A DNA stretch of 64,000 bases, taken from contig OX597831.1 of the NCBI GenBank assembly GCA_951406725.2, positions 30,132,001 through 30,196,000 on the forward strand, given 5' to 3'. Shown here one piece after another: positions 1-25,284 of this stretch; within the stretch, counting starts at the first letter, position 1; each line of letters starts with the position of its first letter. Source of the DNA: Octopus vulgaris. Taxonomy: Eukaryota. The notes below the pieces were generated by a model that was not told the DNA's origin, did no database searches, and was given only the letters and a program-made list of their open reading frames with translations. Position numbers and translations under genes: made by a program.

Positions 1-309
1 CCGACAATTTTCCGAAAATTTTAACCAAAAAGTTATCGAAAATTACCGAAAATTTTAACCAGAAAGTTTTCAAAAATTTTCATCGAAAGCTTTACCCAAA
101 AATTTACAGAAAATTTCACCCAAAAAGTTTTCGAATATTTTCCCCAAAAATTTCTCGAAAATTTTCACCTAAAATTTTCCCCAAAAATTTTTCGAAAATT
201 TTCACGGAAAATTTTCCCAAAAGTTTTTCGAAAATTTTCACGGAAAATTTTACCCAAAATTTTTCGAAAGTTTTACCCCAAAATTTGTCCAAAATTTTCC
301 CCGAGCTAA

Positions 310-500
310 AAATGGCTAAAAATAGATTTTTAGGTGGCTGTTGCTGCTGCTTTCTGTGTATAGAGTGAATTCTGGTTTACTCCTACTGTCAAGATGCCTC
401 ACCATCGACGATACACCAGATTCTGCTTTACACTTAACAACTATGACGATATCGACGTTTATAGACTTCAGCATATGGAGCATATTCGTTATATGGTTTA
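310..500. repeat. ~190-bp complex module embedded in satellite (copies ~10105-10303, ~10597-10680 partial, ~11120-11320)
   Basis: ggctaaaaatagatttttaggtggctgttgctgctgctttctgtgtatagagtgaattc...cttcagcatatggagcatattcgttatatgg occurs four times with divergence. Confidence 0.9.
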
Positions 501-842
501 TCGAAAATTTTAACCGAAAATTTTTGGCGAAACTTTTATCCAAAATTTTTTTTAAAATTTTCACTGAAAATTTTCAGCAAAAATCTTTCGAAAAATTTCA
601 CCGAAAATTTTCCCCAAAAATTTTTCGAAAATTTTCCCCAAAGATTTTTCGAAAATTTTCACCGAAATTTTACGCAAAAATTTTCCCCGAAAATTTTCTC
701 AAGAATTTTTCCAAAATTTTCATCGAAAATTTTCCACAAAAATTTTTCCAAAATTTTCACCGTAAATTTTTCCCCAAAAATTTTCCAAAATTTTCACAGA
801 AAATTTTACCTAAAAATTTTAGCGGTTCAAAAATCAGAAATT

Positions 843-1366
843 ATGGCTTTCCATACTTTGTGATTTTGGCACCGCTGGCCTTCCATACTTTTTGAAGTTG
901 GCACAGCTGGCCTTCCATACTTTTTGAGTTTGGCACCGCTGGCCTTCCATACTTTCTGATTTATGACAACCGATGCTGGTGTGTTTATGACAAAAATCAC
1001 AAATTATGGCTTTCCATACTTTGTGATTTTGGCACCGCTGGCCTTCCATACTTTATGATTTTGGCTCCGCTGGCCTTCCATACTTTTTGAAGTTGGCACC
1101 GCTGACCTACCATACTTTTTGAAGTTGGCACCGCTGGCCTTCCATACTTTTTGATTTTGGCTCCGCTGGCCCTCCATACTTCTTGATTTTAGCACCGCTG
1201 GCCTTCCATACTTTATGATTTTGGCTCCGCTGGCCATCCATACTTTTTGATTTTAGCACCGCTGGCCTTCCATACTTTTTGATTTTGGCACAGCCGGCCT
1301 TCCATACTTTTTGATTTTGGCACAGCTGGCCTTCCATACTTTTTGATTTTGGCACAGCTGGCTTTG
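843..1366. repeat. 32-bp minisatellite (gattttggcaccgctggccttccatacttttt)n; further blocks ~2730-3250, 4605-5065, 6373-6800, 8025-8320 and inverted 8788-9064
   Basis: Period read directly, e.g. gatttt at 1025 and 1057. Confidence 0.95.
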
Positions 1367-1594
1367 TGATTTTCGAAAATTTTTATTTAGAATTTTTCCA
1401 AAATTTTAACCGAAAATTCTACCCAAAAATTATATATGCACGTATATATATATGCACGTATATATATATATATACATGTAGGTATGTACATATATGGATG
1501 TATACATGCATATATTTATATATTATTTATATTATTATATGATCGAACGCCACGATTATATTTTCCAAGTAAGTTTTATATATATATATATATG

Positions 1595-1648
<54 letters not shown>

Positions 1649-1650
<2 letters not shown>

Positions 1651-1833
1651 CTCTCTTACTCTTTTACTTGTTTCAGTCATTTGACTGCGGCCATGCTGGA
1701 GCACCGCCTTCAATCGAGCAAATCGACCTCGGGACTTATTCTTTTGTAAGCCCAGTACTTATTCTATCGGTCTCTTTTGCTGAAAGTACTTATTCTAGGG
1801 GACAAACACAGACACACAAATACTCACACGCAT

Positions 1834-1866
<33 letters not shown>

Positions 1867-2002
1867 CATATATACGACGGGCTTCTTTTAGTTTCCGTCT
1901 ATCAAATCTACTCACAAGGCTTTGGTCGGCCCGAGGCTATAGCAGAAGACACTTACCCAAGGTCCACGCAGTGGGACTGAATCCGGAACCATGCGGTTGG
2001 TA
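1649..2002 (-). mobile_element. SINE group A (tRNA-derived, internal TA/CA tract), head-truncated, inside tandem unit; sister copies ~3526-3879, 5338-5701, 7023-7413, 9095-9484
   Basis: Matches the full copies at 26122-26530 and 50610-51030 (ttacttgtttcagtcatttgactgcggccatgctggagcaccgcc...gtgggactgaatccggaaccatg). Confidence 0.9.
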
Positions 2003-3462
2003 GATATATATATCATGGAAAATTTTCCCCAAAAATTTTTGCCGAAAATTTTCCCCAAAGATTTTTCGAAAATTTTCACAGAAATTTTACCTAAAAATTT
2101 TACGAAAGTTTTCCCTAAAAACTTTTCGAAGAGTTCCACTGAAAATTGTACGAAAAAATTTTTCGAGAATTTTCCCTAAAGATTTTTCGAAAATTTTAAC
2201 CATAAATTTTACGAAAATTTTCCCCAAAAACTTTTCGAAAATTTTACCCAAAAATCTCTCGAAAGTTTTCACCGAAAATTTTAACCAAATATATGTGTGT
2301 GTGTATGCGTGTGAGTATTTGTGTGTCTGTGTTTGTCCCCTAGAATAGTACAAAAACTTTTCGAAAATTTTCATAGAAAACTTTCCCCAAAAATTTTTGC
2401 CGAAAATTTTTACCAAAGAGTTTTCGAAAATTTTCCCCAAAAACTTTTCGAAGAGTTTCACTGAAAATTGTACCCAAAAATTTTTCGAAAATTTACCGAA
2501 AATTTTACCCAAAAATTTTTTACCGAAAATTTTACCCAAAAATTTTTACCGAAAATTTTCCCCAAAGATTTTTCGAAAATTTTCCCAAAATTTTTTCCAA
2601 AATTTTCATCCAAAATTTTCCACAAAAATTTTTCCAAAATTTTCACCGTAAATTTTTCCCCAAAAATTTTCCAAAATTTTCACAGAAAATTTTACCTAAA
2701 AATTTTAGCGGTTCAAAAATCAGAAATTATGGCTTTCCATACTTTGTGATTTTGGCACCGCTGGCCTTCCATACTTTTTGAAGTTGGCACAGCTGGCCTT
2801 CCATACTTTTTGAGTTTGGCACCGCTGGCCTTCCATACTTTCTGATTTATGACAACCGATGCTGGTGTGTTTATGACAAAAATCACAAATTATGGCTTTC
2901 CATACTTTGTGATTTTGGCACCGCTGGCCTTCCATACTTTATGATTTTGGCTCCGCTGGCCTTCCATACTTTTTGAAGTTGGCACCGCTGACCTACCATA
3001 CTTTTTGAAGTTGGCACCGCTGGCCTTCCATACTTTTTGATTTTGGCTCCGCTGGCCCTCCATACTTCTTGATTTTAGCACCGCTGGCCTTCCATACTTT
3101 ATGATTTTGGCTCCGCTGGCCATCCATACTTTTTGATTTTAGCACCGCTGGCCTTCCATACTTTTTGATTTTGGCACAGCCGGCCTTCCATACTTTTTGA
3201 TTTTGGCACAGCTGGCCTTCCATACTTTTTGATTTTGGCACAGCTGGCTTTGTGATTTACGAAAATTTTTACTTAGAATTTTTCCAAAATTTTAACCGAA
3301 AATTCTACCCAAAAATTATATATGCACGTATATATATATGCACGTATATATATATATATACATGTAGGTATGTACATATATGGATGTATACATGCATATA
3401 TTTATATATTATTTATATTATTATATGATCGAACGCCACGATTATATTTTCCAAGTAAGTTT

Positions 3463-3527
<65 letters not shown>

Positions 3528-5262
3528 CTCTCTTACTCTTTTACTTGTTTCAGTCATTTGACTGCGGCCATGCTGGAGCACCGCCTTTCAATCGAGCAAA
3601 TCGACCTCGGGACTTATTCTTTTGTAAGCCCAGTACTTATTCTATCGGTCTCTTTTGCTGAAAGTACTTATTCTAGGGGACAAACACAGACACACAAATA
3701 CTCACACGCATACACACACACATATATATATATATATATATGTACATATATACGACGGGCTTCTTTAGTTTCCGTCTATCAAATCTACTCACAAGGCTTT
3801 GGTCGGCCCGAGGCTATAGCAGAAGACACTTACCCAAGGTCCACGCAGTGGGACTGAATCCGGAACCATGCGGTTGGTAGATATATATATCATGGAAAAT
3901 TTTCCCCAAAAATTTTTGCCGAAAATTTTCCCCAAAGATTTTTCGAAAATTTTCACAGAAATTTTACCTAAAAATTTTACGAAAGTTTTCCCAAAAACTT
4001 TTCGAAGAGTTCCACTGAAAATTGTACGAAAAAATTTTTCGAGAATTTTCCCTAAAGATTTTTCGAAAATTTTAACCATAAATTTTACGAAAATTTTCCC
4101 CAAAAACTTTTCGAAAATTTTACCCAAAAATCTCTCGAAAGTTTTCACCGAAAATTTTAACCAAATATATGTGTGTGTGTATGCGTGTGAGTATTTGTGT
4201 GTCTGTGTTTGTCCCCTAGAATAGTACAAAAACTTTTCGAAAATTTTCATAGAAAACTTTCCCAAAAATTTTTGCCGAAAATTTTCCCCAAAGAGTTTTC
4301 GAAAATTTTCCCCAAAAACTTTTCGAAGAGTTTCACTGAAAATTGTACCCAAAAATTTTTCGAAAATTTACCGAAAATTTTACCCAAAAATTTTTTACCG
4401 AAAATTTTACCCAAAAATTTTTACCGAAAATTTTCCCCAAAGATTTTTCGAAAATTTTCCCAAAATTTTTTCCAAAATTTTCATCCAAAATTTTCCACAA
4501 AAATTTTTCCAAAATTTTCACCGTAAATTTTTCCCCAAAAATTTTTCCTAAATTTTCACAGAAAATTTTACCTAAAAATTTTAGCGGTTCAAAAATCACA
4601 AATTATGGCTTTCCATACTTTGTGATTTTGGCACCGCTGGCCTTCCATACTTTTTGAAGTTGGCACCGCTGGCCTTCCATACTTTTTGATTTTGGCTCCG
4701 CTGGCCCTCCATACTTTTTGATTTTTAGCACCGCTGGCCTTCCATACTTTATGATTTTGGCACAGCCGGCCTTCCATACTTTTTGCTTTTTGGCACAACT
4801 GGCCTTCCATACTTTTTGATTTTTTGGCACAGCTGGCCTTCCATACTTTTTGATTTTGGCACCGCTGGCCTTCCATACTTTATGATTTTGGCTCCGCTGG
4901 CCCTCCATACTTTTTGATTTTTAGCACCGCTGGCCTTCCATACTTTATGATTTTGGCACAGCCGGCCTTCCATACTTTTTGATTTTGGCACAGCTGGCCT
5001 TCCATACTTTTTGATTTTGGCACAGCTGGCCTTCCATACTTTCTGATTTTGGCACCGCTGGCTTTGTGATTTTTCGAATATTTTTACCGTAAATTTTAAC
5101 CGAAAATTCTACCCAAAAATTATATATGCACGTATATATATATATGCACGTATATATATATATACATGTCGGTATGTACATATATGGATGTATACATGCA
5201 TATATTTATATATTATTTATATTATTATATGATCGAACGCCACGATTATATTTTCCAAGTAA

Positions 5263-5316
<54 letters not shown>

Positions 5317-5522
5317 TATACATATATATATATATATTACTCTCTTACTCTTTTACTTGTTTCAGTCATTTGACTGCGGCCATGCTGGAGCACCGCCTTC
5401 AATCGAGCAAATCGACCTCGGGACTTATTCTTTTGTAAGCCCAGTACTTATTCTATCGGTCTCTTTTGCTGAAAGTACTTATTCTAGGGGACAAACACAG
5501 ACACACAAATACTCACACGCAT

Positions 5523-5571
<49 letters not shown>

Positions 5572-8044
5572 TACGACGGGCTTCTTTTAGTTTCCGTCTA
5601 TCAAATCTACTCACAAGGCTTTGGTCGGCCCGAGGCTATAGTAGAAGACACTTACCCAAGGTCCACGCAGTGGGACTGAATCCGGAACCATGCGGTTGGT
5701 AGATATATATATCATGGAAAATTTTCCCCAAAAATTTTTGCCGAAAATTTTCCCCAAAGATTTTTCGAAAATTTTCACAGAAATTTTACCTAAAAATTTT
5801 ACGAAAGTTTTCCCTAAAAACTTTTCGAAGAGTTCCACTGAAAATTGTACGAAAAAATTTTTCGAGAATTTTCCCTAAAGATTTTTCGAAAATTTTAACC
5901 ATAAATTTTACGAAAATTTTCCCCAAAAACTTTTCGAAAATTTTACCCAAAAATCTCTCGAAAGTTTTCACCGAAAATTTTAACCAAATATTTTTCGAAA
6001 ATTTTCACCAAATATTTTTACCAAAAACTTTTCGAAAATTTTCATAGAAAACTTTCCCCAAAAATTTTTGCCGAAAATTTTCCCCAAAGATTTTTCGAAA
6101 ACTTTCCCCAAAAACTTTTCGAAGAGTTTCACTGAAAATTGTACCAAAAAATTTTTCGAAAATTTACCGAAAATTTTACCCAAAAATTTTTACCGAAAAT
6201 TTTCCCCAAAGATTTTTCGAAAATTTTCCCAAAATTTTTCCAAAATTTTCATCCAAAATTTTCCACAAAAATTTTTCCAAAATTTTCACCGTAAAATTTT
6301 CCCCAAAAATTTTCCAAAATTTTCACAGAAAATTTTACCTAAAAATTTTAGCGGTTCAAAAATCAGAAATTAATGGCTTTCCATACTTTGTGATTTTGGC
6401 ACCGCTGGCCTTCCATACTTTTTGAAGTTGGCACCGCTGGCCTTCCATACTTTTTGATTTTTGGCTCCACTGGCCCTCCATACTTTTTGATTTTAGCACC
6501 GCTGGCCTTCCATACTTTATGATTTTGGCACAGCCGGCCTTCCATACTTTTTGCTTTTGGCACAACTGGCCTTCCATACTTTTTGATTTTTTGGCACAGC
6601 TGGCCTTCCATACTTTTTCATTTTGGCACCGCTGGCCTTCCATACTTTATGATTTTGGCTCCGCTGGCCCTCCATACTTTTTGATTTTAGCACCGCTGGC
6701 CTTCCATACTTTATGATTTTGGCACAGCCGGCCTTCCATACTTTTTGATTTTGGCACAGCTGGCCTTCCATACTTTCTGATTTTGGCACCGCTGGCTTTG
6801 TGATTTTTCGAATATTTTTACCGTAAATTTTAACCGAAAATTCTACCCAAAAATTATATATGCACGTATATATATATGCACGTATATATATATATACATG
6901 TCGGTATGTACATATATGGATGTATACATGCATATATTTATATATTATTTATATTATCATATGATCGAACGCCACGATTATATTTTCCAAGTAAGTTTTA
7001 TATATATATATATATATATATATTACTCTTTTACTCTTTTACCTGTTTCAGTCATTTGACTGCGGCCATGCTGGAGCACCGCCTTTAATTGAGCAACTCG
7101 ACCCCGGGACTTATTCTTTTGTAAGCCCAGTACTTATTCTATCGGTCTCTTTTGCCGAACCGCTAGGTGACGGGGACATAAACACACCAGCATTGTTTGT
7201 CAAGCAATGCTAGGGGACAAACACAGACACACGCATACACACACGCATACACACATATATATATATATATATATATACATATATACGACGGGCTTCTTTC
7301 AGTTTCCGTCTATCAAATCTACTCACAAGGCTTTGGTCGGCCCGAGGCTATAGTAGAAGACACTTACCCAAGGTGCCACGCAGTGGGACTGAATCCGGAA
7401 CCATGCGGTTGGTAGATATATATATCATGGAAAACTTTCCCCAAAAATTTTTGCCGAAAATTTTCCCCAAAGATTTTTCGAAAATTTTCACAGAAATTTT
7501 ACCTAAAAATTTTACGAAAATTTTCCCCAAAAACTTTTCGAAGAGTTCCACTGAAAATTGTACCAAAAAATATTACGAAAATTTTCCCTAAAGATTTTTC
7601 GAAAATTTTCACCGAAAATTTTAACCAAAAATTTTACGAAAATTTTCCCCCAAAATTTTTCGAAAATTTTACCCAAAAATCTTTCGAAAGTTTTCACCGA
7701 AAATTTTACCCAAATATTTTTCGAAAATTTTCTCCAAATATTTTCACCAAAAACTTTTCGAAAATTTTCATAGAAAACTTCCCCAAAAATTTTTGCCGAA
7801 AATTTTCCCCAAAGATTTTTCGAAAATTTTCACAGTAATTTTACCCAAAAATTTTACGAAAATTTTCCCCGAAAATTTTCCCAAAACTTTTTCCAAAATT
7901 TTCATCGAAAATTTTCCACAAAAATTTTTCCAAAATCTTCACCGTAAATTTTTCCCCAAAAATTATCCAAAATTTTCACCGAAAATTTTACCTAAAAATT
8001 TTAGCGGTTCAAAAATTACAAATTATGGCTTTCCATACTTTGTG

Positions 8045-9064
8045 ATTTTGGCACCGCTGGCCTTCCATACTTTTTGAAGTTGGCACCGCTGGCCTTCCAT
8101 ACTTTTTGAAGTTGGCACCATTGGCCTTCCCTACTTTTTGATTTTGGCACCGTTGGCCTTCCATACTTTTTGATTTTGGCTAAGCTGGCCCTCCAAACTT
8201 TTTGATTTTTAGCACCGCTGGCCTTCCATACTTTATGATTTTGGCACAGCCGGCCTTCCATACTTTTTGATTTTTGCACAGCTGGCCTTCCATACTTTCT
8301 GATTTTGGCACCGCTGGCTTTCTGATTTTTCGAATATTTTTAACTAAAATTTTTCCAAAATTTTAACCGAAAATTCTACCCAAAAATTATATATGCACGT
8401 ATATATATATACACGTATATATATATATACATGTAGGTATGTACATATATGGATGTATACATGCATATATTTATATATTATTTATATTATTATATGATCG
8501 AACGCCACGATTATATTTTCCAAGTAAGTTTTATATACATATATATATATATATATATAAAACTTACTTGGAAAATATAATCGTGGCGTTCGATCATATA
8601 ATAATATAAATAATATATAAATATATGCACGTATACAACCATATATGTACATACCTACATGTATATATATATATATACGTGCATATATATATACGTGCAT
8701 ATATATATACGTGCATATATAATTTTTGGGTAGAATTTTCGGTTAAAACTTTGGAAAAATTTTAGTTAAAAATATTCGAAAAATCACAAAGCCAGCGGTG
8801 TCTAAATCAGAAAGTATGGATGGCCAGCTGTGCCAAAATCAAAAAGTATGGAAGGCCAGCTGTGCCAAAATCAAAAAGTATGGAAGGCCGGCTGTGCCCA
8901 AATCATAAAGTATGGAAGGCCAGCGGTGCTAAAAATCAAAAAGTTTGGAGGGCCAGCTTAGCCAAAATCAAAAAGTATGGAAGGCCAACGGTGCCAAAAT
9001 CAAAAAGTAGGGAAGGCCAATGGTGCCAACTTCAAAAAGTATGGAAGGCCAGCGGTGCCAAAAT
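8045..9064. repeat. ~1 kb imperfect palindrome centred on (TA)n at ~8548
   Basis: ttccaagtaagtttta(TA)n taaaacttacttggaa at the centre. The 32-bp repeats right of centre are reverse complements of those on the left. Confidence 0.93.
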
Positions 9065-9325
9065 ATATGTATATATATATACATATATATATATTACTCT
9101 TTTACTCTTTTACTTCTTTCAGTCATTTGACTGCGGCCATGCTGGAGCACCGCCTTTAATCGAGCAACTCGACCCTGGGACTTATTCTTTTGTAAGCCCA
9201 GTACTTATTCTATCGGTCTCTTTTGCCGAACCGCTAGGTGACGGGGACATAAACACACCAGCATCGGTTGTCAAGCAATGCTAGGGGACAAACACAGACA
9301 CACAAATACACACACGCATACACAC

Positions 9326-9356
<31 letters not shown>

Positions 9357-11559
9357 CGACGGGCTTCTTTCAATTTCCGTCTATCAAATCTACTCACAAG
9401 GCTTTGGTCGGCCCGAGGCTACAGTAGAAGACACTTACCCAAGGTGCCAAGCAGTGGGACTGAACCCGGAACCATGCGGTTGGTAGATATATATATCATG
9501 GAAAACTTTCCCCAAAAATTTTTGCCGAAAGATTTTTCGAAAATTTTCACAGAAATTTTACCTAAAAATTTTACGAAAATTTTCCCCAAAAACTTTTCGA
9601 AGAGTTCCACTGAAAATTGTACCAAAAAATTTTTCAAAAATTTTCCCTAAAGATTTTTCGAAAATTTTCACCGAAAATTTTAACCAAAAATTTTACGAAA
9701 ATTTTCCCCCAAAATTCTTCGAAAATTTTACCCAAAAATCTTTCGAAAGTTTTCACCGAAAATTTAACCCAAAAATTTTTCGAAAATTTTCACCAAGTAT
9801 TTTCACCAAAAACTTTTCGGAAATTTTCATGGAAAACTTTCCCCAATAATTTTTGCCGAATATTTTCCCCAAAGATGTTTCGAAAATTTTCACAGAAATT
9901 TTACCTAAAAATTTTACGAAAATTTTCCCCAAAAACTTTTCGAAGAGTTCCACTGAAAATTTTCCCTAAAGATTTTTCGAAAATTTTCACCGAAAATTTT
10001 AACCAAAAATTTTACGAAAATTTTACCCAAAAAGTTTTCGAAAATTTTCAGCAAGTATTTTCCCCAAAAACTTTTCGAAGAGTTCCACTGAAAATTGTAC
10101 CAAAAAATAGATGTTATGGCTAAAAATAGATTTTTAGGTGGCTGTTGCTGCTGCTTTCTGTGTATAGAGTGAATTCTCGTACAATATTACAGTCAAGATG
10201 CCTCACCATCCCCGGTACACCAGATTCTGCTTTACAACTTTACAACTATGACGATATCGACTTTTATAGACTTCAGCATATGGAGCATATTCGTTATATG
10301 GGTTTTCGAAAATTTTCACCGAAAATTTTAAGCAAAAATTTTTCAAAAATTTTAACCGAAAATTTTCCCAAAAATTAAAAAAAAAATTTTTGCCGAAAAT
10401 TCTCCCCAAAAATTTTTCGGAAATTTACCGAAACTTTTCACCGAATATTTTACCCAAAAATCTTTCGAAAGTTTTCCCCGAAAATTTTACCGAAAAATCT
10501 TTCGAAAATTTTCACCGAAAATTTTCACCACAGATTTTTTTGAAAATTTTCGCCGAAAATTTTACCCCAAAATTTGTCGAAAATTTTCCCAGAGATAAAA
10601 ATAGATGTTATGGCTAAAAATAGATTTTTCGGTGGCTGTTGCTACTGCTCTCTGTGTATAGAGTGAATTCTGGTTCAATATTTAAAAACAAATTTTTGCC
10701 GAAAATTCTCCCCAAATATTTTTCGAAAATTTAACGAAAATTTTCACCAGAAATTTTTCGAAAATTTACCGAAAATTTTACCCAAAAATCTTTCGAAATT
10801 TTCACCGAAAATTTTACCCAAAAATTTTTCGAAAATTTTCACCAAATATTTTCACCAAAAACTTTTCGAAAATTTTTACCGAAAATTTTCCCCAAGTTTT
10901 TCGAAAATTTTCACCGAAAATTTTACCCAAAAATCTTTCGAAAATTTTCACCGAAAATTATCCCCAAAAATCTGTCGAAAATTTTCACCGAAAATTTTAC
11001 GAAAATTTTCCCCAAAAATGTTTCGAAAATTTCGAAGGGTTTCACTGAAAATTTTACCAAAAAATTTTCTAAAATTCTCTCCAAAAACTTTTTCCAAAAT
11101 TTTCACCGAAAATTTTTCCCAAAAATAGATGTCAAAGTTAAAAACTGAGTTTTAGGTGGCTGCTGCTTTCTGTATATATATAGCGTGAATTCTGGTGTTC
11201 TACTACAGTCAAGATGCCTCACCATCCCCGATACCCCAATTTCTGCTTTACACTTAATAACTATGACGTGATCGACGTTTATTGACTTCAGCATATGGAG
11301 CATATTCGTTATATGGGTTTTCGAAAATTTTCACCAAAAACTTTCCCCAAAAATTTTTCCAAAGTTTTCACCGAAAATTTTACCCAAAAATTTCTCGAAA
11401 ATTTTCACCGAAAATTTTCCCCAAAACTTTTTCGAAAATTTTCACCGAAAATTTTCCCCAATAGATTAGAAATTGTGATAAAAAAATCACGTTGACAAAA
11501 CATGTCACCGCAGAGATATGTCAATGAAAGCAGAGTGCAACACTTCTGTAGAAACAATT

Positions 11560-15263: not shown

Positions 15264-15653
15264 ACCTATAGAATGAGTGCGAGATATATTTTTCTTTTAG
15301 TTTTCTTCATTTGTAGCAGAGAAATGTGGGCGTGAAATAATTTTAAGTCTCTTCTACAATTACCAAGGGAAAAAACTATTTCCAAAACAATACCCGTAAC
15401 TAGAGGAATGCATCTCACCTAATCTTTCTTAAAAATGTACATTTTTTGTTTGAAAATTTCCAAACATAGTTATTAATTAAAATTGCATCATAAAACGTTG
15501 AAAAAATAATAATTTTCACTGGTCTGTGATCTGTTTCCTTCCATTTACAATGATGTTGCGTAGTTCAACAATGTTTATGGAGAGATGGCATGAAGAAAAC
15601 CAAGTTGTCATAGAAATTTCGTAAATATTTATTATTCGATTGAACCTAAGACC

Positions 15654-15663
15654 AAAATAAAAA
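15654..15663 (-). terminator. Pol III oligo-T terminator (TTTTTATTTT), repeated in every unit
   Basis: T5 starts 10 nt after the discriminator base on the tRNA strand. Confidence 0.8.
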
Positions 15664-15673
15664 TGAGGTACGA

Positions 15674-15746
15674 TGCCGAAACCCGGGATCGAACCAGGGA
15701 CCTTTAGATCTTCAGTCTAACGTTCTCCCAACTGAGCTATTTCGGC
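15674..15746 (-). tRNA. trnF-GAA: tRNA-Phe(GAA) copy 1, G24A variant (also copies 2-5 and 8)
   Basis: Plus strand reads cgttctccca instead of cgctctccca, giving a C11:A24 mismatch in the D stem. Confidence 0.9.
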
Positions 15747-16673
15747 TATGCGTTGCTGGTTTACCATTTTATTGACATGGAGAGATGGCATGAAGAAAAC
15801 CAAGTTGTCATAGAAATTTCGTAAATATTTATTATTCGACTGAACCTAAGACCAAAATAAAAATGAGGTACGATGCCGAAACCCGGGATCGAACCAGGGA
15901 CCTTTAGATCTTCAGTCTAACGTTCTCCCAACTGAGCTATTTCGGCTATGCGTTGCTGGTTTACCATTTTATTGACATGGAGAGATGGCATGAAGAAAAC
16001 CAAGTTGTCATAGAAATTTCGTAAATATTTATTATTCGACTGAACCTAAGACCAAAATAAAAATGAGGTACGATGCCGAAACCCGGGATCGAACCAGGGA
16101 CCTTTAGATCTTCAGTCTAACGTTCTCCCAACTGAGCTATTTCGGCTATGCGTTGCTGGTTTACCATTTTATTGACATGGAGAGATGGCATGAAGAAAAC
16201 CAAGTTGTCATAGAAATTTCGTAAATATTTATTATTCGACTGAACCTAAGACCAAAATAAAAATGAGGTACGATGCCGAAACCCGGGATCGAACCAGGGA
16301 CCTTTAGATCTTCAGTCTAACGTTCTCCCAACTGAGCTATTTCGGCTATGCGTTGCTGGTTTACCATTTTATTGACATGGAGAGATGGCATGAAGAAAAC
16401 CAAGTTGTCATAGAAATTTCGTAAATATTTATTATTCGACTGAACCTAAGACCAAAATAAAAATGAGGTACGATGCCGAAACCCGGGATCGAACCAGGGA
16501 CCTTTAGATCTTCAGTCTAACGTTCTCCCAACTGAGCTATTTCGGCTATGCGTTGCTGGTTTACCATTTTATTGACATGGAGAGATGGCATGAAGAAAAC
16601 CAAGTTGTCATAGAAATTTCGTAAATATTTATTATTCGATTGAACCTAAGACCAAAATAAAAATGAGGTACGA

Positions 16674-16746
16674 TGCCGAAACCCGGGATCGAACCAGGGA
16701 CCTTTAGATCTTCAGTCTAACGCTCTCCCAACTGAGCTATTTCGGC
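16674..16746 (-). tRNA. trnF-GAA: tRNA-Phe(GAA) copy 6, first canonical copy
   Basis: Intact stems, A-box and B-box. Confidence 0.97.
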
Positions 16747-19700
16747 TGTGCGTTGCTGATTTACCATTTTATTGACATGGAGAGATGACATGAAGAAAAC
16801 CAAGTTGTCATAGAAATTTCGTAAATATTTATTATTCGATTGAACCTAAGACCAAAATAAAAATGAGGTACGATGCCGAAACCCGGGATCGAACCAGGGA
16901 CCTTTAGATCTTCAGTCTAACGCTCTCCCAACTGAGCTATTTCGGCTGTGCGTTGCTGATTTACCATTTTATTGACATGGAGAGATGACATGAAGAAAAC
17001 CAAGTTGTCATAGAAATTTCGTAAATATTTATTATTCGATTGAACCTAAGACCAAAATAAAAATGAGGTACGATGCCGAAACCCGGGATCGAACCAGGGA
17101 CCTTTAGATCTTCAGTCTAACGTTCTCCCAACTGAGCTATTTCGGCTATGCGTTGCTGATTTACCATTTTATTGACATGGAGAGATGACATGAAGAAAAC
17201 CAAGTTGTCATAGAAATTTCGTAAATATTTATTATTCGATTGAACCTAAGACCAAAATAAAAATGAGGTACGATGCCGAAACCCGGGATCGAACCAGGGA
17301 CCTTTAGATCTTCAGTCTAACGCTCTCCCAACTGAGCTATTTCGGCTATGCGTTGCTGATTTACCATTTTATTGGCATGGAGAGATGACATGAAGAAAAC
17401 CAAGTTGTCATAGAAATTTCGTAAATATTTATTATTCGATTGAACCTAAGAACAAAATAAAAATGAGGTACGATGCCGAAACCCGGGATCGAACCAGGGA
17501 CCTTTAGATCTTCAGTCTAACGCTCTCCCAACTGAGCTATTTCGGCTATGCGTTGCTGATTTACCATTTTATTGGCATGGAGAGATGACATGAAGAAAAC
17601 CAAGTTGTCATAGAAATTTCGTAAATATTTATTATTCGATTGAACCTAAGAACAAAATAAAAATGAGGTACGATGCCGAAACCCGGGATCGAACCAGGGA
17701 CCTTTAGATCTTCAGTCTAACGCTCTCCCAACTGAGCTATTTCGGCTATGCGTTGCTGATTTACCATTTCATTGGCATGGAGAGATGACATGAAGAAAAC
17801 CAAGTTGTCATAGAAATTTCGTAAATATTTATTATTCGATTGAACCTAAGAACAAAATAAAAATGAGGTACGATGCCGAAACCCGGGATCGAACCAGGGA
17901 CCTTTAGATCTTCAGTCTAACGCTCTCCCAACTGAGCTATTTCGGCTGTGCGTTGCTGATTTACCATTTTATTGGCATGGAGAGATGACATGAAGAAAAC
18001 CAAGTTGTCATAGAAATTTCGTAAATATTTATTATTCGATTGAACCTAAGAACAAAATAAAAATGAGGTACGATGCCGAAACCCGGGATCGAACCAGGGA
18101 CCTTTAGATCTTCAGTCTAACGCTCTCCCAACTGAGCTATTTCGGCTATGCGTTGCTGATTTACCATTTCATTGGCATGGAGAGATGACATGAAGAAAAC
18201 CAAGTTGTCATAGAAATTTCGTAAATATTTATTATTCGATTGAACCTAAGAACAAAATAAAAATGAGGTACGATGCCGAAACCCGGGATCGAACCAGGGA
18301 CCTTTAGATCTTCAGTCTAACGCTCTCCCAACTGAGCTATTTCGGCTATGCGTTGCTGATTTACCATTTCATTGGCATGGAGAGATGACATGAAGAAAAC
18401 CAAGTTGTCATAGAAATTTCGTAAATATTTATTATTCGATTGAACCTAAGAACAAAATAAAAATGAGGTACGATGCCGAAACCCGGGATCGAACCAGGGA
18501 CCTTTAGATCTTCAGTCTAACGCTCTCCCAACTGAGCTATTTCGGCTGTGCGTTGCTGATTTACCATTTTATTGACATGGAGAGATGACATGAAGAAAAC
18601 CAAGTTGTCATAGAAATTTCGTAAATATTTATTATTCGATTGAACCTAAGACCAAAATAAAAATGAGGTACGATGCCGAAACCCGGGATCGAACCAGGGA
18701 CCTTTAGATCTTCAGTCTAACGCTCTCCCAACTGAGCTATTTCGGCTATGCGTTGCTGATTTACCATTTTATTGACATGGAGAGATGACATGAAGAAAAC
18801 CAAGTTGTCATAGAAATTTCGTAAATATTTATTATTCGATTGAACCTAAGACCAAAATAAAAATGAGGTACGATGCCGAAACCCGGGATCGAACCAGGGA
18901 CCTTTAGATCTTCAGTCTAACGCTCTCCCAACTGAGCTATTTCGGCTATGCGTTGCTGATTTACCATTTTATTGGCATGGAGAGATGACATGAAGAAAAC
19001 CAAGTTGTCATAGAAATTTCGTAAATATTTATTATTCGATTGAACCTAAGAACAAAATAAAAATGAGGTACGATGCCGAAACCCGGGATCGAACCAGGGA
19101 CCTTTAGATCTTCAGTCTAACGCTCTCCCAACTGAGCTATTTCGGCTATGCGTTGCTGATTTACCATTTTATTGGCATGGAGAGATGACATGAAGAAAAC
19201 CAAGTTGTCATAGAAATTTCGTAAATATTTATTATTCGATTGAACCTAAGAACAAAATAAAAATGAGGTACGATGCCGAAACCCGGGATCGAACCAGGGA
19301 CCTTTAGATCTTCAGTCTAACGCTCTCCCAACTGAGCTATTTCGGCTATGCGTTGCTGATTTACCATTTCATTGGCATGGAGAGATGACATGAAGAAAAC
19401 CAAGTTGTCATAGAAATTTCGTAAATATTTATTATTCGATTGAACCTAAGAACAAAATAAAAATGAGGTACGATGCCGAAACCCGGGATCGAACCAGGGA
19501 CCTTTAGATCTTCAGTCTAACGCTCTCCCAACTGAGCTATTTCGGCTGTGCGTTGCTGATTTACCATTTTATTGGCATGGAGAGATGACATGAAGAAAAC
19601 CAAGTTGTCATAGAAATTTCGTAAATATTTATTATTCGATTGAACCTAAGAACAAAATAAAAATGAGGTACGATGCCGAAACCCGGGATCGAACCAGGGA

Positions 19701-20073
19701 CCTTTAGATCTTCAGTCTAACGCTCTCCCAACTGAGCTATTTCGGCTATGCGTTGCTGATTTACCATTTCATTGGCATGGAGAGATGACATGAAGAAAAC
19801 CAAGTTGTCATAGAAATTTCGTAAATATTTATTATTCGATTGAACCTAAGAACAAAATAAAAATGAGGTACGATGCCGAAACCCGGGATCGAACCAGGGA
19901 CCTTTAGATCTTCAGTCTAACGCTCTCCCAACTGAGCTATTTCGGCTATGCGTTGCTGATTTACCATTTCATTGGCATGGAGAGATGACATGAAGAAAAC
20001 CAAGTTGTCATAGAAATTTCGTAAATATTTATTATTCGATTGAACCTAAGAACAAAATAAAAATGAGGTACGA

Positions 20074-20146
20074 TGCCGAAACCCGGGATCGAACTAGGGA
20101 CCTTTAGATCTTCAGTCTAACGCTCTCCCAAATGAGCTATTTCGGC
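20074..20146 (-). tRNA. trnF-GAA: tRNA-Phe(GAA) copy 23, G15T + G52A, likely impaired
   Basis: Plus strand gaactaggga and aatgagctat; breaks the 15:48 tertiary pair and the 52-62 pair. Confidence 0.75.
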
Positions 20147-23100
20147 TTTGCGTTGCTGATTTACCATTTTATTGGCATGGAGAGATGACATGAAGAAAAC
20201 CAAGTTGTCATAGAAATTTCGTAAATATTTATTATTCGATTGAACCTAAGAACAAAATAAAAATGAGGTACGATGCCGAAACCCGGGATCGAACCAGGGA
20301 CCTTTAGATCTTCAGTCTAACGCTCTCCCAACTGAGCTATTTCGGCTGTGCGTTGCTGATTTACCATTTTATTGACATGGAGAGATGACATGAAGAAAAC
20401 CAAGTTGTCATAGAAATTTCGTAAATATTTATTATTCGATTGAACCTAAGAACAAAATAAAAATGAGGTACGATGCCGAAACCCGGGATCGAACCAGGGA
20501 CCTTTAGATCTTCAGTCTAACGCTCTCCCAACTGAGCTATTTCGGCTGTGCGTTGCTGATTTACCATTTTATTGACATGGAGAGATGACATGAAGAAAAC
20601 CAAGTTGTCATAGAAATTTCGTAAATATTTATTATTCGATTGAACCTAAGAACAAAATAAAAATGAGGTACGATGCCGAAACCCGGGATCGAACCAGGGA
20701 CCTTTAGATCTTCAGTCTAACGCTCTCCCAACTGAGCTATTTCGGCTGTGCGTTGCTGATTTACCATTTTATTGACATGGAGAGATAGCATGAAGAAAAC
20801 CAAGTTGTCATAGAAATTTCGTAAATATTTATTATTCGATTGAACCTAAGAACAAAATAAAAATGAGGTACGATGCCGAAACCCGGGATCGAACCAGGGA
20901 CCTTTAGATCTTCAGTCTAACGCTCTCCCAACTGAGCTATTTCGGCTGTGCGTTGCTGATTTACCATTTTATTGACATGGAGAGATGACATGAAGAAAAC
21001 CAAGTTGTCATAGAAATTTCGTAAATATTTATTATTCGATTGAACCTAAGAACAAAATAAAAATGAGGTACGATGCCGAAACCCGGGATCGAACCAGGGA
21101 CCTTTAGATCTTCAGTCTAACGCTCTCCCAACTGAGCTATTTCGGCTATGCGTTGCTGATTTACCATTTTATTGGCATGGAGAGATGACATGAAGAAAAC
21201 CAAGTTGTCATAGAAATTTCGTAAATATTTATTATTCGATTGAACCTAAGAACAAAATAAAAATGAGGTACGATGCCGAAACCCGGGATCGAACCAGGGA
21301 CCTTTAGATCTTCAGTCTAACGCTCTCCCAACTGAGCTATTTCGGCTGTGCGTTGCTGATTTACCATTTTATTGACATGGAGAGATGACATGAAGAAAAC
21401 CAAGTTGTCATAGAAATTTCGTAAATATTTATTATTCGATTGAACCTAAGAACAAAATAAAAATGAGGTACGATGCCGAAACCCGGGATCGAACCAGGGA
21501 CCTTTAGATCTTCAGTCTAACGCTCTCCCAACTGAGCTATTTCGGCTGTGCGTTGCTGATTTACCATTTTATTGACATGGAGAGATAGCATGAAGAAAAC
21601 CAAGTTGTCATAGAAATTTCGTAAATATTTATTATTCGATTGAACCTAAGAACAAAATAAAAATGAGGTACGATGCCGAAACCCGGGATCGAACCAGGGA
21701 CCTTTAGATCTTCAGTCTAACGCTCTCCCAACTGAGCTATTTCGGCTATGCGTTGCTGATTTACCATTTTATTGGCATGGAGAGATGACATGAAGAAAAC
21801 CAAGTTGTCATAGAAATTTCGTAAATATTTATTATTCGATTGAACCTAAGAACAAAATAAAAATGAGGTACGATGCCGAAACCCGGGATCGAACCAGGGA
21901 CCTTTAGATCTTCAGTCTAACGCTCTCCCAACTGAGCTATTTCGGCTATGCGTTGCTGATTTACCATTTTATTGGCATGGAGAGATGACATGAAGAAAAC
22001 CAAGTTGTCATAGAAATTTCGTAAATATTTATTATTCGATTGAACCTAAGAACAAAATAAAAATGAGGTACGATGCCGAAACCCGGGATCGAACCAGGGA
22101 CCTTTAGATCTTCAGTCTAACGCTCTCCCAACTGAGCTATTTCGGCTATGCGTTGCTGATTTACCATTTTATTGACATGGAGAGATGACATGAAGAAAAC
22201 CAAGTTGTCATAGAAATTTCGTAAATATTTATTATTCGATTGAACCTAAGAACAAAATAAAAATGAGGTACGATGCCGAAACCCGGGATCGAACCAGGGA
22301 CCTTTAGATCTTCAGTCTAACGCTCTCCCAACTGAGCTATTTCGGCTATGCGTTGCTGATTTACCATTTTATTGACATGGAGAGATGCATGAAGAAAACC
22401 AAGTTGTCATAGAAATTTCGTAAATATTTATTATTCGATTGAACCTAAGACCAAAATAAAAATGAGGTACGATGCCGAAACCCGGGATCGAACCAGGGAC
22501 CTTTAGATCTTCAGTCTAACGCTCTCCCAACTGAGCTATTTCGGCTATGCGTTGCTGATTTACCATTTTATTGACATGGAGAGATAGACATGAAGAAAAC
22601 CAAGTTGTCATAGAAATTTCGTAAATATTTATTATTCGATTGAACCTAAGAACAAAATAAAAATGAGGTACGATGCCGAAACCCGGGATCGAACCAGGGA
22701 CCTTTAGATCTTCAGTCTAACGCTCTCCCAACTGAGCTATTTCGGCTGTGCGTTGCTGATTTACCATTTTATTGACATGGAGAGATAGCATGAAGAAAAC
22801 CAAGTTGTCATAGAAATTTCGTAAATATTTATTATTCGATTGAACCTAAGAACAAAATAAAAATGAGGTACGATGCCGAAACCCGGGATCGAACCAGGGA
22901 CCTTTAGATCTTCAGTCTAACGCTCTCCCAACTGAGCTATTTCGGCTGTGCGTTGCTGATTTACCATTTTATTGACATGGAGAGATGGCATGAAGAAAAC
23001 CAAGTTGTCATAGAAATTTCGTAAATATTTATTATTCGATTGAACCTAAGAACAAAATAAAAATGAGGTACGATGCCGAAACCCGGGATCGAACCAGGGA

Positions 23101-24673
23101 CCTTTAGATCTTCAGTCTAACGCTCTCCCAACTGAGCTATTTCGGCTGTGCGTTGCTGATTTACCATTTTATTGACATGGAGAGATGGCATGAAGAAAAC
23201 CAAGTTGTCATAGAAATTTCGTAAATATTTATTATTCGATTGAACCTAAGACCAAAATAAAAATGAGGTACGATGCCGAAACCCGGGATCGAACCAGGGA
23301 CCTTTAGATCTTCAGTCTAACGCTCTCCCAACTGAGCTATTTCGGCTGTGCGTTGCTGATTTACCATTTTATTGACATGGAGAGATAGCATGAAGAAAAC
23401 CAAGTTGTCATAGAAATTTCGTAAATATTTATTATTCGATTGAACCTAAGAACAAAATAAAAATGAGGTACGATGCCGAAACCCGGGATCGAACCAGGGA
23501 CCTTTAGATCTTCAGTCTAACGCTCTCCCAACTGAGCTATTTCGGCTGTGCGTTGCTGATTTACCATTTTATTGACATGGAGAGATGGCATGAAGAAAAC
23601 CAAGTTGTCATAGAAATTTCGTAAATATTTATTATTCGATTGAACCTAAGAACAAAATAAAAATGAGGTACGATGCCGAAACCCGGGATCGAACCAGGGA
23701 CCTTTAGATCTTCAGTCTAACGCTCTCCCAACTGAGCTATTTCGGCTGTGCGTTGCTGATTTACCATTTTATTGACATGGAGAGATAGCATGAAGAAAAC
23801 CAAGTTGTCATAGAAATTTCGTAAATATTTATTATTCGATTGAACCTAAGAACAAAATAAAAATGAGGTACGATGCCGAAACCCGGGATCGAACCAGGGA
23901 CCTTTAGATCTTCAGTCTAACGCTCTCCCAACTGAGCTATTTCGGCTGTGCGTTGCTGATTTACCATTTTATTGACATGGAGAGATAGCATGAAGAAAAC
24001 CAAGTTGTCATAGAAATTTCGTAAATATTTATTATTCGATTGAACCTAAGAACAAAATAAAAATGAGGTACGATGCCGAAACCCGGGATCGAACCAGGGA
24101 CCTTTAGATCTTCAGTCTAACGCTCTCCCAACTGAGCTATTTCGGCTGTGCGTTGCTGATTTACCATTTTATTGACATGGAGAGATAGCATGAAGAAAAC
24201 CAAGTTGTCATAGAAATTTCGTAAATATTTATTATTCGATTGAACCTAAGAACAAAATAAAAATGAGGTACGATGCCGAAACCCGGGATCGAACCAGGGA
24301 CCTTTAGATCTTCAGTCTAACGCTCTCCCAACTGAGCTATTTCGGCTGTGCGTTGCTGATTTACCATTTTATTGACATGGAGAGATGGCATGAAGAAAAC
24401 CAAGTTGTCATAGAAATTTCGTAAATATTTATTATTCGATTGAACCTAAGAACAAAATAAAAATGAGGTACGATGCCGAAACCCGGGATCGAACCAGGGA
24501 CCTTTAGATCTTCAGTCTAACGCTCTCCCAACTGAGCTATTTCGGCTATGCGTTGCTGATTTACCATTTTATTGACATGGAGAGATAGCATGAAGAAAAC
24601 CAAGTTGTCATAGAAATTTCGTAAATATTTATTATTCGATTGAACCTAAGACCAAAATAAAAATGAGGTACGA

Positions 24674-24746
24674 TGCCGAAACCCGGGATCGAACCAGGGA
24701 CCTTTAGATCTTCAGTCTAACGCTCTCCCAAATGAGCTATTTCGGC
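24674..24746 (-). tRNA. trnF-GAA: tRNA-Phe(GAA) copy 46, G15T
   Basis: Plus strand aatgagctat. Confidence 0.8.
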
Positions 24747-25073
24747 TGTGCGTTGCTGATTTACCATTTTATTGACATGGAGAGATGGCATGAAGAAAAC
24801 CAAGTTGTCATAGAAATTTCGTAAATATTTATTATTCGATTGAACCTAAGACCAAAATAAAAATGAGGTACGATGCCGAAACCCGGGATCGAACCAGGGA
24901 CCTTTAGATCTTCAGTCTAACGCTCTCCCAACTGAGCTATTTCGGCTGTGCGTTGCTGATTTACCATTTTATTGACATGGAGAGATGGCATGAAGAAAAC
25001 CAAGTTGTCATAGAAATTTCGTAAATATTTATTATTCGATTGAACCTAAGAACAAAATAAAAATGAGGTACAA

Positions 25074-25146
25074 TGCCGAAACCCGGGATCGAACCAGGGT
25101 CCTTTAGATCTTCAGTCTAACGCTCTCCCAACTGAGCTATTTCGGC
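25074..25146 (-). tRNA. trnF-GAA: tRNA-Phe(GAA) copy 48 (terminal), T47A, diverged flanks
   Basis: Plus strand gaaccagggt; flank gtgtgttgcaggtttgcc differs from the internal consensus. Confidence 0.9.
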
Positions 25147-25284
25147 TGTGTGTTGCAGGTTTGCCATTTTATTGACGTATTCTGTATTGAAATAGTTTGT
25201 CGCAAATTTTCGAAACAAAAGTATCACCGAGAAAATTCGATAGCTGACCAGTGGCAGTTCAGTGATGTGTTTCGCTAGACTTGG

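Follow-up and report, generated by a model that had tools for sequence, protein, structure and literature searches.

A young and compact tandem array of tRNA-Phe(GAA) genes in Octopus vulgaris, and recurrent single-tRNA arrays in the same genome

Tandem arrays of transfer RNA (tRNA) genes are known from protists, plants, and vertebrates, and as a kind they are not new. The array considered here is composed of tRNA-Phe(GAA) genes and lies in a 64,000-nucleotide stretch of the Octopus vulgaris assembly GCA_951406725.2 (2.80 Gb, 227 contigs). This stretch, termed "the window", corresponds to positions 30,132,001-30,196,000 of contig OX597831.1 (C18). In Entamoeba, almost all tRNA genes are found in tandem arrays, which exceed 10% of the genome and display units of up to five genes with spacers filled with short tandem repeats (STRs) (PMC2652664). 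An 81-gene tRNA array of Arabidopsis has been modelled by unequal crossing-over and neutral drift of the copy number (PMC2886086). This Ser-Tyr-Tyr (SYY) array, with 27 triplet units, shares with the octopus locus its head-to-tail intact genes, and a presumed expansion by unequal crossing-over and concerted evolution, although its unit harbors three genes of two isotypes (PMC2886086, PMC12308677); it is silenced in most tissues and active in the root cap (PMC12308677). Also in Arabidopsis, a tRNA-Cys-GCA cluster resembles the octopus array by its single isoacceptor and short units and varies among ecotypes, but it comprises four genes in 0.4-kb units, twice the length of the Phe unit (PMC10701932). 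Among animals, the human 1q23.3 variable number tandem repeat of tRNA genes (tDNA) possesses tens of units (9-43 per allele), each a GC-rich, multi-gene segment of 7.3 kb with a CTCF site, conserved in mouse (PMC4041453). Zebrafish has 9,904 predicted tRNA genes, most of them on a single chromosome arm; large clusters of one anticodon coexist with dispersed copies, and maternal-type isodecoders are present (10.1101/869651, PMC11075544). Finally, tandem arrays of tRNA genes undergo expansion and contraction between species of Drosophila (PMC7919458).

To judge from its sequence, the octopus locus is a real, young, and compact tandem tDNA array with one gene per 200 bp. In contrast to Entamoeba, it is a local array of 9.6 kb with a plain, flank-derived spacer, and many copies of its gene are dispersed; neither the arraying of most tRNA genes nor multi-gene units with STR spacers are found. 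Compared with the human repeat, its single-gene unit is short, AT-rich, and young. Unlike the zebrafish clusters, the octopus arrays hold tens of copies and are located on several chromosomes, and the Phe array carries the same isodecoder as the dispersed genes, not the distinct one of a maternal-type cluster. No animal tRNA array with a stated unit this short was found in the literature searched, which is not a proof that none is in print. No description of such arrays in octopus or other cephalopods was found in titles and abstract openings; the supplementary tRNA tables of genome papers could bear on this question. The more interesting result is the recurrence of such arrays across seven amino acids in one genome, any functional role of which beyond redundancy would be hypothetical.

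Tandem Repeats Finder (TRF), applied to the window, delineates an array at 15577-25176 with a period of 200, 48.0 copies, 99% matches, and a score of 18393, which excludes a chance origin. ARAGORN and Rfam both call a minus-strand tRNA-Phe(GAA) gene in 48/48 units, with Rfam scores of 61-70 bits for a gathering score of 29. These three programs uphold the 48-copy, 200-bp-period array described in an initial annotation of the window, as well as the anatomy it gave for the unit (a 73-nt gene, a T5 run after 10 nt, and a 127-bp spacer): in the 5/48 units inspected, the T5 run starts at +11, behind a 10-nt trailer. Units are 200 bp long in 46 cases, 199 bp in one, and 201 bp in one, and the most frequent 40-nt downstream sequence is common to 32/48 of them. 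The array displays 21 unit haplotypes defined by 16 variable columns, four in the gene and twelve in the spacer. Identical canonical genes are present in 39/48 units, in agreement with the few spacer polymorphisms and mostly canonical genes reported initially. The variants are G24A in 6/48 units, breaking a D-stem pair, G15T in the A box in 2/48, one of them also with G52A in the T stem, and T47A in 1/48, the 5'-most gene. The elements of a type-2 RNA polymerase III (Pol III) gene, internal A and B boxes and a downstream T-run, are present, two genes having the A-box change. Head-to-tail repeats, each with a complete tRNA gene, define a tandem tDNA array; a tRNA-derived short interspersed nuclear element (SINE) or satellite would instead combine a degenerate tRNA head with an unrelated body or tail, whereas the full canonical gene is found here with its native flanks. 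Minimum-free-energy folding gave no cloverleaf for the canonical Phe gene, and the variants could not be ranked by folding.

The origin of the unit can be traced. It is the -30 to +97 slice around one Phe gene of a Phe-Asn cassette, and both array ends run on, in register, into the flanks of single Phe cassettes found elsewhere. The array region and C18:4.244-4.258 Mb, 26 Mb off, form a segmental duplication with rearrangements, at ~85-96% identity. The latter, paralogous locus holds 8 Phe genes, none tandemly repeated, and lacks the satellite block present in the window. The four closest paralogues differ from the array unit at 6-8/97 downstream sites and at 0-1/73 gene sites, and the main gene sequence of the array is that of dispersed Phe genes on C6 and C18. 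The mean pairwise difference reaches 1.7% among array units vs ~9-11% in the flanks between segmental-duplicate copies; the array is thus several times younger than the segmental duplication, on a scale without calibration in years, and the recent amplification or homogenisation proposed initially is supported. Rolling-circle insertion elsewhere was ruled out, as both array ends are in register with native flanks. The Asn partner of the founder cassette is likely a pseudogene, and an older, inverted Phe-Asn cassette paralogue spans 27597-28553 (Table 1). The region 25300-26100 harbors, on the minus strand, a remnant with a WPPRSPDL motif, which we take to be a Tc1/mariner-like transposase; Pfam returned 0 families for a 33-aa piece of it.

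Tandem repeats subjected to unequal crossing-over and conversion acquire a distance gradient, repeated blocks, and diverged end units. In the Phe array, units differ at 1.7 sites at lag 1 and at 3.9 sites at lag 20 (Mantel rho 0.43, p = 0.0005). A block of six units is repeated at lag 8 (p = 0.0002, 5000 shuffles), all four gametes are observed in 13/36 pairs of common sites, and the 5'-terminal unit shows 8 differences from the consensus, compared to 0-5 for the other units. Since unequal crossing-over with conversion is expected to leave such marks, we infer that the array undergoes concerted evolution by unequal exchange. An excess of variable sites in the 30-bp 5' flank (7/30 vs 5/97, p = 0.007) loses significance once the end unit is dropped (4/30 vs 4/97, p = 0.09), and transcription-associated mutagenesis is therefore not claimed. 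A 7-bp word across the unit junction recurs 13 bp upstream in some haplotypes, which could hint at templated end-joining; this is not claimed either.

The presence of the copies in the animal was addressed by searching public sequencing runs with one 127-bp spacer and by matching contigs of four of them, labelled X1, X6, X7, and X8. Part of the spacer occurs in 17/24 listed runs, from 7 studies, and at least half of 10 sampled words in 9; no RNA run is listed among them, which is uninformative on expression. In X6, two contigs cross a unit junction with 0 and 1 mismatches at depths of 142 and 343, with only 19 letters on their short side, under the 31-letter bridging rule (the reference gave at most 30). 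In the same run, an exact 75-bp array contig has a depth of 480, as against 24 for a contig that covers this stretch with 3 mismatches; this mismatch count is matched by the paralogue at C18:4,259,363 and by no array unit. In X8, from a different sample and study (76% read), array-type pieces reach depths of 423 and 600 vs 14-35 for divergent ones; a loose end exactly at the unit boundary reads as native flank, and the unit junction is uncovered. No matching contigs were found in X1 (presumed RNA) and X7 (organism B), and the spacer share of 0.7 in X7 could be accounted for by a single orthologous cassette. Contig depth is not copy number, and one run may be the assembly's own sample. With a ~20-fold contrast between array and paralogue-type sequences in two samples, a multi-copy array is very likely real. 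Read depth was among the checks initially proposed for an expansion of one or a few units into 48 by the assembly. Such an artefact would fit the ratio of ~20 in one run, below 48, and the lack of a spanning read among the runs examined; it is largely refuted by the depths of the X6 junction contigs and X8 pieces and by 21 ordered haplotypes with a distance gradient, and is extremely improbable.

Further arrays were sought in the genome with a pattern of three T-arms spaced by 101-291 bp, which yielded 188 matches vs 4 in the control, and with variants of it, one of which gave mostly noise (201 matches vs 111 in the control). Array counts are lower bounds, as they refer to the matches listed (88, 85, and 101 matches of three T-arm searches fall outside) and to a limited range of periods. 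Among the first 13 candidate regions, 7 have tRNA genes and 6 do not, and 9 further regions include 2 with full-gene arrays. The genome thereby contains at least 8 compact single-tRNA arrays for seven amino acids (Phe, Ala, Asp, Arg, Leu, Cys, and Tyr), with 155-206-bp units (Table 1). They differ in age, with 79-99% TRF matches over this set, and none of those found exceeds the Phe array in size or homogeneity. A single-isoacceptor animal array this compact had been considered unusual in the initial annotation; at least 7 more in the same genome, one nearly equal in size (Ala, 43.6 units), contradict this view. Long tRNA-derived arrays found all hold complete genes and a T-run, the two seemingly partial-gene candidates having only 3-4 units. 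Non-tRNA segments are also amplified in tandem, with 102 copies of 167 bp (C30:12.99 Mb), at least 30 of 125 bp (C14:7.43 Mb), and 9 of 189 bp (C7:15.97 Mb). The median period is 160 for 30 non-tRNA arrays, hand-read from listings, vs 186 for 8 tRNA arrays (p = 0.07). As the same searches yielded non-tRNA arrays of similar period, a repeat length close to that of nucleosomes is nothing special, and the meaning first attached to this spacing is not retained.

Table 1. Features of the Phe array, its surroundings, and the other arrays of the genome (positions without prefix are those of the window)
Feature	Position	Strand
Tandem array, 48.0 x 200 bp; unit of 30 bp 5' flank, 73-nt tRNA-Phe(GAA), and 97 bp 3' flank, T5 at +11	15577-25176	-
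5'-most gene, T47A; unit most diverged (8 differences from consensus), sole unit with native upstream flank	25074-25146	-
Five adjacent G24A genes (sixth at 17074-17146); variant spread locally at 3' end; Rfam 61.1 vs 69.8 bits	15674-16546	-
Example of 127-bp spacer; junction between 20376 and 20377 joins 3' flank +97 to 5' flank -30, without microhomology	20347-20473	.
Higher-order repeat: six units 17177-18376 identical to six units 18777-19976; offset 8 units, 1600 bp	17177-19976	.
Native 3' flank of founder cassette; in register with paralogues at C18:4.25-4.26 Mb, 89-91% identity	15017-15576	-
Native 5' flank of founder cassette; 91% identical to C18:4,248,998-4,249,894; holds broken Tc1/mariner-like transposase remnant (presumed)	25177-26084	-
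tRNA-Asn(GTT) partner of founder cassette; damaged T-loop/B-box; Rfam 58.8 vs 70.8 bits	15190-15263	-
Single tRNA-Phe(GAA) of older inverted Phe-Asn cassette; ~71% identity over gene and flanks	27597-27669	+
Intact tRNA-Asn(GTT) of inverted cassette	28480-28553	+
Ala-TGC array, 183 bp x 43.6, 40 ARAGORN genes	C5:51,792,789-51,800,746 (51.79 Mb)	
Asp-GTC arrays, 158 bp, blocks of 7, 15, 10, and 8 genes	C5:51,226,825-51,236,089 and 51,300,859-51,302,111 (51.23, 51.30 Mb)	
Arg-ACG array, 206 bp x 9 and x 5	C2:211.90 Mb	
Leu-TAA array, ~169 bp x 11	C3:164.79 Mb	
Cys-GCA array, ~155 bp x 13	C12:25.26 Mb	
Tyr-GTA array, 189 bp x 5	C4:51.91 Mb	
Arg-TCG array, 191 bp x 3	C3:160.03 Mb	
167-bp x 102 array, 99% matches; SINE-head-like segment with B-box-like motif, no tRNA gene called	C30:12,987,767-13,004,819	

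The contribution of the arrays to their isoacceptors was estimated from exact genome matches. The Phe array holds 40/71 matches to the first 46 nt of its gene, the other 31 lying elsewhere. With 29-mers, 41/68 matches for Ala-TGC and 35/93 for Asp-GTC are in arrays, leaving 27/68 and 58/93 outside; arrays are therefore not the sole source. A role in Phe-tRNA dosage, as suggested initially, is possible in view of the share in the array, and is tempered by the 31/71 matches elsewhere. Regarding constraint, variable sites in the Phe array are not significantly rarer in the gene (4/73) than in the spacer (12/127, p = 0.42), and a second test on this array alone gave p = 0.77; its nucleotide diversity is 0.5% in the gene and 2.4% in the spacer. 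Gene diversity is lower than spacer diversity in 12/12 blocks and 8/8 arrays (sign test p = 0.008), with pooled variable sites of 45/886 vs 208/1218, in a count restricted to units within 25% of the period and excluding the Tyr intron. Singly, the difference is significant in 4/12 blocks, Leu (p = 2e-13), Cys (p = 2e-11), and two of Asp. This lower gene diversity fits expression under purifying selection, and is weak evidence that the array genes may be expressed.

Some observations were made beside these arrays and the Phe genes. Within ~0.5 Mb of C5 lie 67/68 exact matches of the Ala-TGC 29-mer. The Asp-GTC arrays are nested within a larger repeat, their blocks being separated by ~2.2-kb spacers, and an inverted copy lies at a distance of 65 kb. 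In the region of C12:25,268,099-25,268,399, the Cys(GCA) copies are accompanied by two genes that ARAGORN assigns to Cys(aca) and Ser(act), possibly anticodon mutants in a decaying part of the Cys cluster. At C29:8,820,092-8,823,400, five intron-bearing genes labelled Met(cat) by ARAGORN, presumably Leu genes from their T-arm, are located beside a 112-bp x 3.8 partial-gene repeat. Four distant sites of C18 (4.25, 30.15, 80.9, and 82.0 Mb) contain Phe genes intermingled with Asn genes, and Lys(CTT) genes adjoin two of these sites. At C6:130.88-131.01 Mb, at least 21 tRNA-Phe genes form a dispersed cluster without uniform orientation; most carry G57A and several are degenerate. This cluster is a second mode of Phe gene expansion.

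A history of in-place duplication, followed by expansion and homogenisation by unequal exchange, with a drifting number of copies predicted to be transcribable by Pol III and under weak purifying selection, appears probable. A single blunt tandem duplication of 200 bp would have captured a whole type-2 unit (-30 to +97) in place; such an A-X-X-B duplication predicts the ends in register and the integer copy number. Unequal exchange would then have expanded and homogenised the array. TFIIIC is predicted to bind the internal A and B boxes, with termination by Pol III in the T5 run. The commonest Phe isodecoder would gain redundant genes from these copies, with little constraint on their number, which may drift near-neutrally. 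The array would thus be one case among the tandem amplifications to which segments of 100-250 bp are prone throughout this genome, and the local spread of the damaging G24A (6/48) counts for weak constraint. Several points weigh against this history. The complete genes of all long tRNA-derived arrays found lean to selection of whole cassettes. The older Leu and Cys arrays drive the pooled difference between genes and spacers. Detection via intact T-arms biases the set to conserved genes, and the same pattern could result from conversion between identical tRNA genes or from mutable T-runs. The native 5' flank is reduced to 30 bp in internal units, possibly at the expense of their activity, and we infer transcription of the array genes from their sequence elements. 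Finally, the Arabidopsis array, by analogy, was once modelled as neutral and was later found to have a cell-type role (PMC12308677).

In a different reading, the Phe and sister arrays would form a dosage module maintained by selection and co-activated in high-demand cells, e.g., the oocyte or early embryo, like the zebrafish maternal-type clusters. The shares of exact matches held by the Phe, Ala-TGC, and Asp-GTC arrays and the conservation of genes over spacers in all blocks favor such a module, as do the location of zebrafish maternal-type tRNA genes mainly in large clusters (10.1101/869651) and the cell-type specificity of the SYY cluster (PMC12308677). It is unlikely, given the erratic array sizes (3 to 48 units) for just seven amino acids so far, a Phe isodecoder shared with dispersed genes and devoid of special variants, stem or A-box damage in 8/48 genes, an array far younger than the segmental duplication, and non-tRNA segments amplified as much; the maternal role of clustered tRNAs is itself termed a hypothesis in the second zebrafish paper (PMC11075544). 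The more specific proposal that minimal isoacceptor-specific Pol III arrays provide a co-regulated, stage-specific tRNA supply (e.g., in the oocyte), with a copy number varying between animals and tuning the pool, is speculative and rather improbable. At the opposite end, the array could be an inert, silenced tRNA-derived satellite, with genes intact merely through youth. The lack of significant constraint within the Phe array alone, the damaged B-box of the partner Asn gene, and the spread of G24A are compatible with silencing; the lower gene diversity, in the same direction in all sister arrays, the strong constraint in Leu and Cys, and boxes and terminators intact in most units make it quite unlikely.

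The satellite neighbour of the array raises the question of a boundary. This ~12-kb block extends from about -390 to 11,458 of the window and stops 4.1 kb short of the array. Its portion in the window (1-11458) displays a 1886-bp higher-order unit, in which A/T-tract repeats alternate with a 32-bp repeat and with SINEs; the block is missing from the paralogous locus and is flanked by a direct duplication of ~670 bp. The ability of tRNA genes to act as chromatin barriers is established, and the array might be a barrier of TFIIIC-bound B boxes shielding the flanking DNA from the satellite. The paralogous locus lacks both satellite and array, as would be expected, and the human 1q23.3 repeat has been proposed as a boundary (PMC4041453). 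The satellite, however, is small and at a distance, and no long short-period satellite is found in the stretches of 8-30 kb examined at the sister arrays, except one ~11 kb from the Cys array. Moreover, the periods of tRNA arrays are not clearly distinct from those of non-tRNA arrays, and no protected gene was identified. The boundary role initially envisaged beside a satellite domain finds no support in the sequence context, the satellite being a local neighbour that is not general among sister arrays, and is very unlikely.

A single animal genome therefore provides a natural series of at least 8 compact arrays of different ages, of which three (Phe, Ala-TGC, and Asp-GTC) hold 38-60% of the exact matches for their isoacceptor. 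As a caution, tRNA gene counts from single assemblies may be dominated by a few unstable loci. For the Phe array, both the founder cassette and a single-copy paralogue are preserved. Through array-specific trailers and junctions, both transcription and copy number can be measured per locus, so that selected dosage and drift can be directly tested against each other. Should the arrays prove to be a stage-specific supply set, they would represent a cephalopod counterpart, still at an early stage, of the maternal tRNA clusters of zebrafish.

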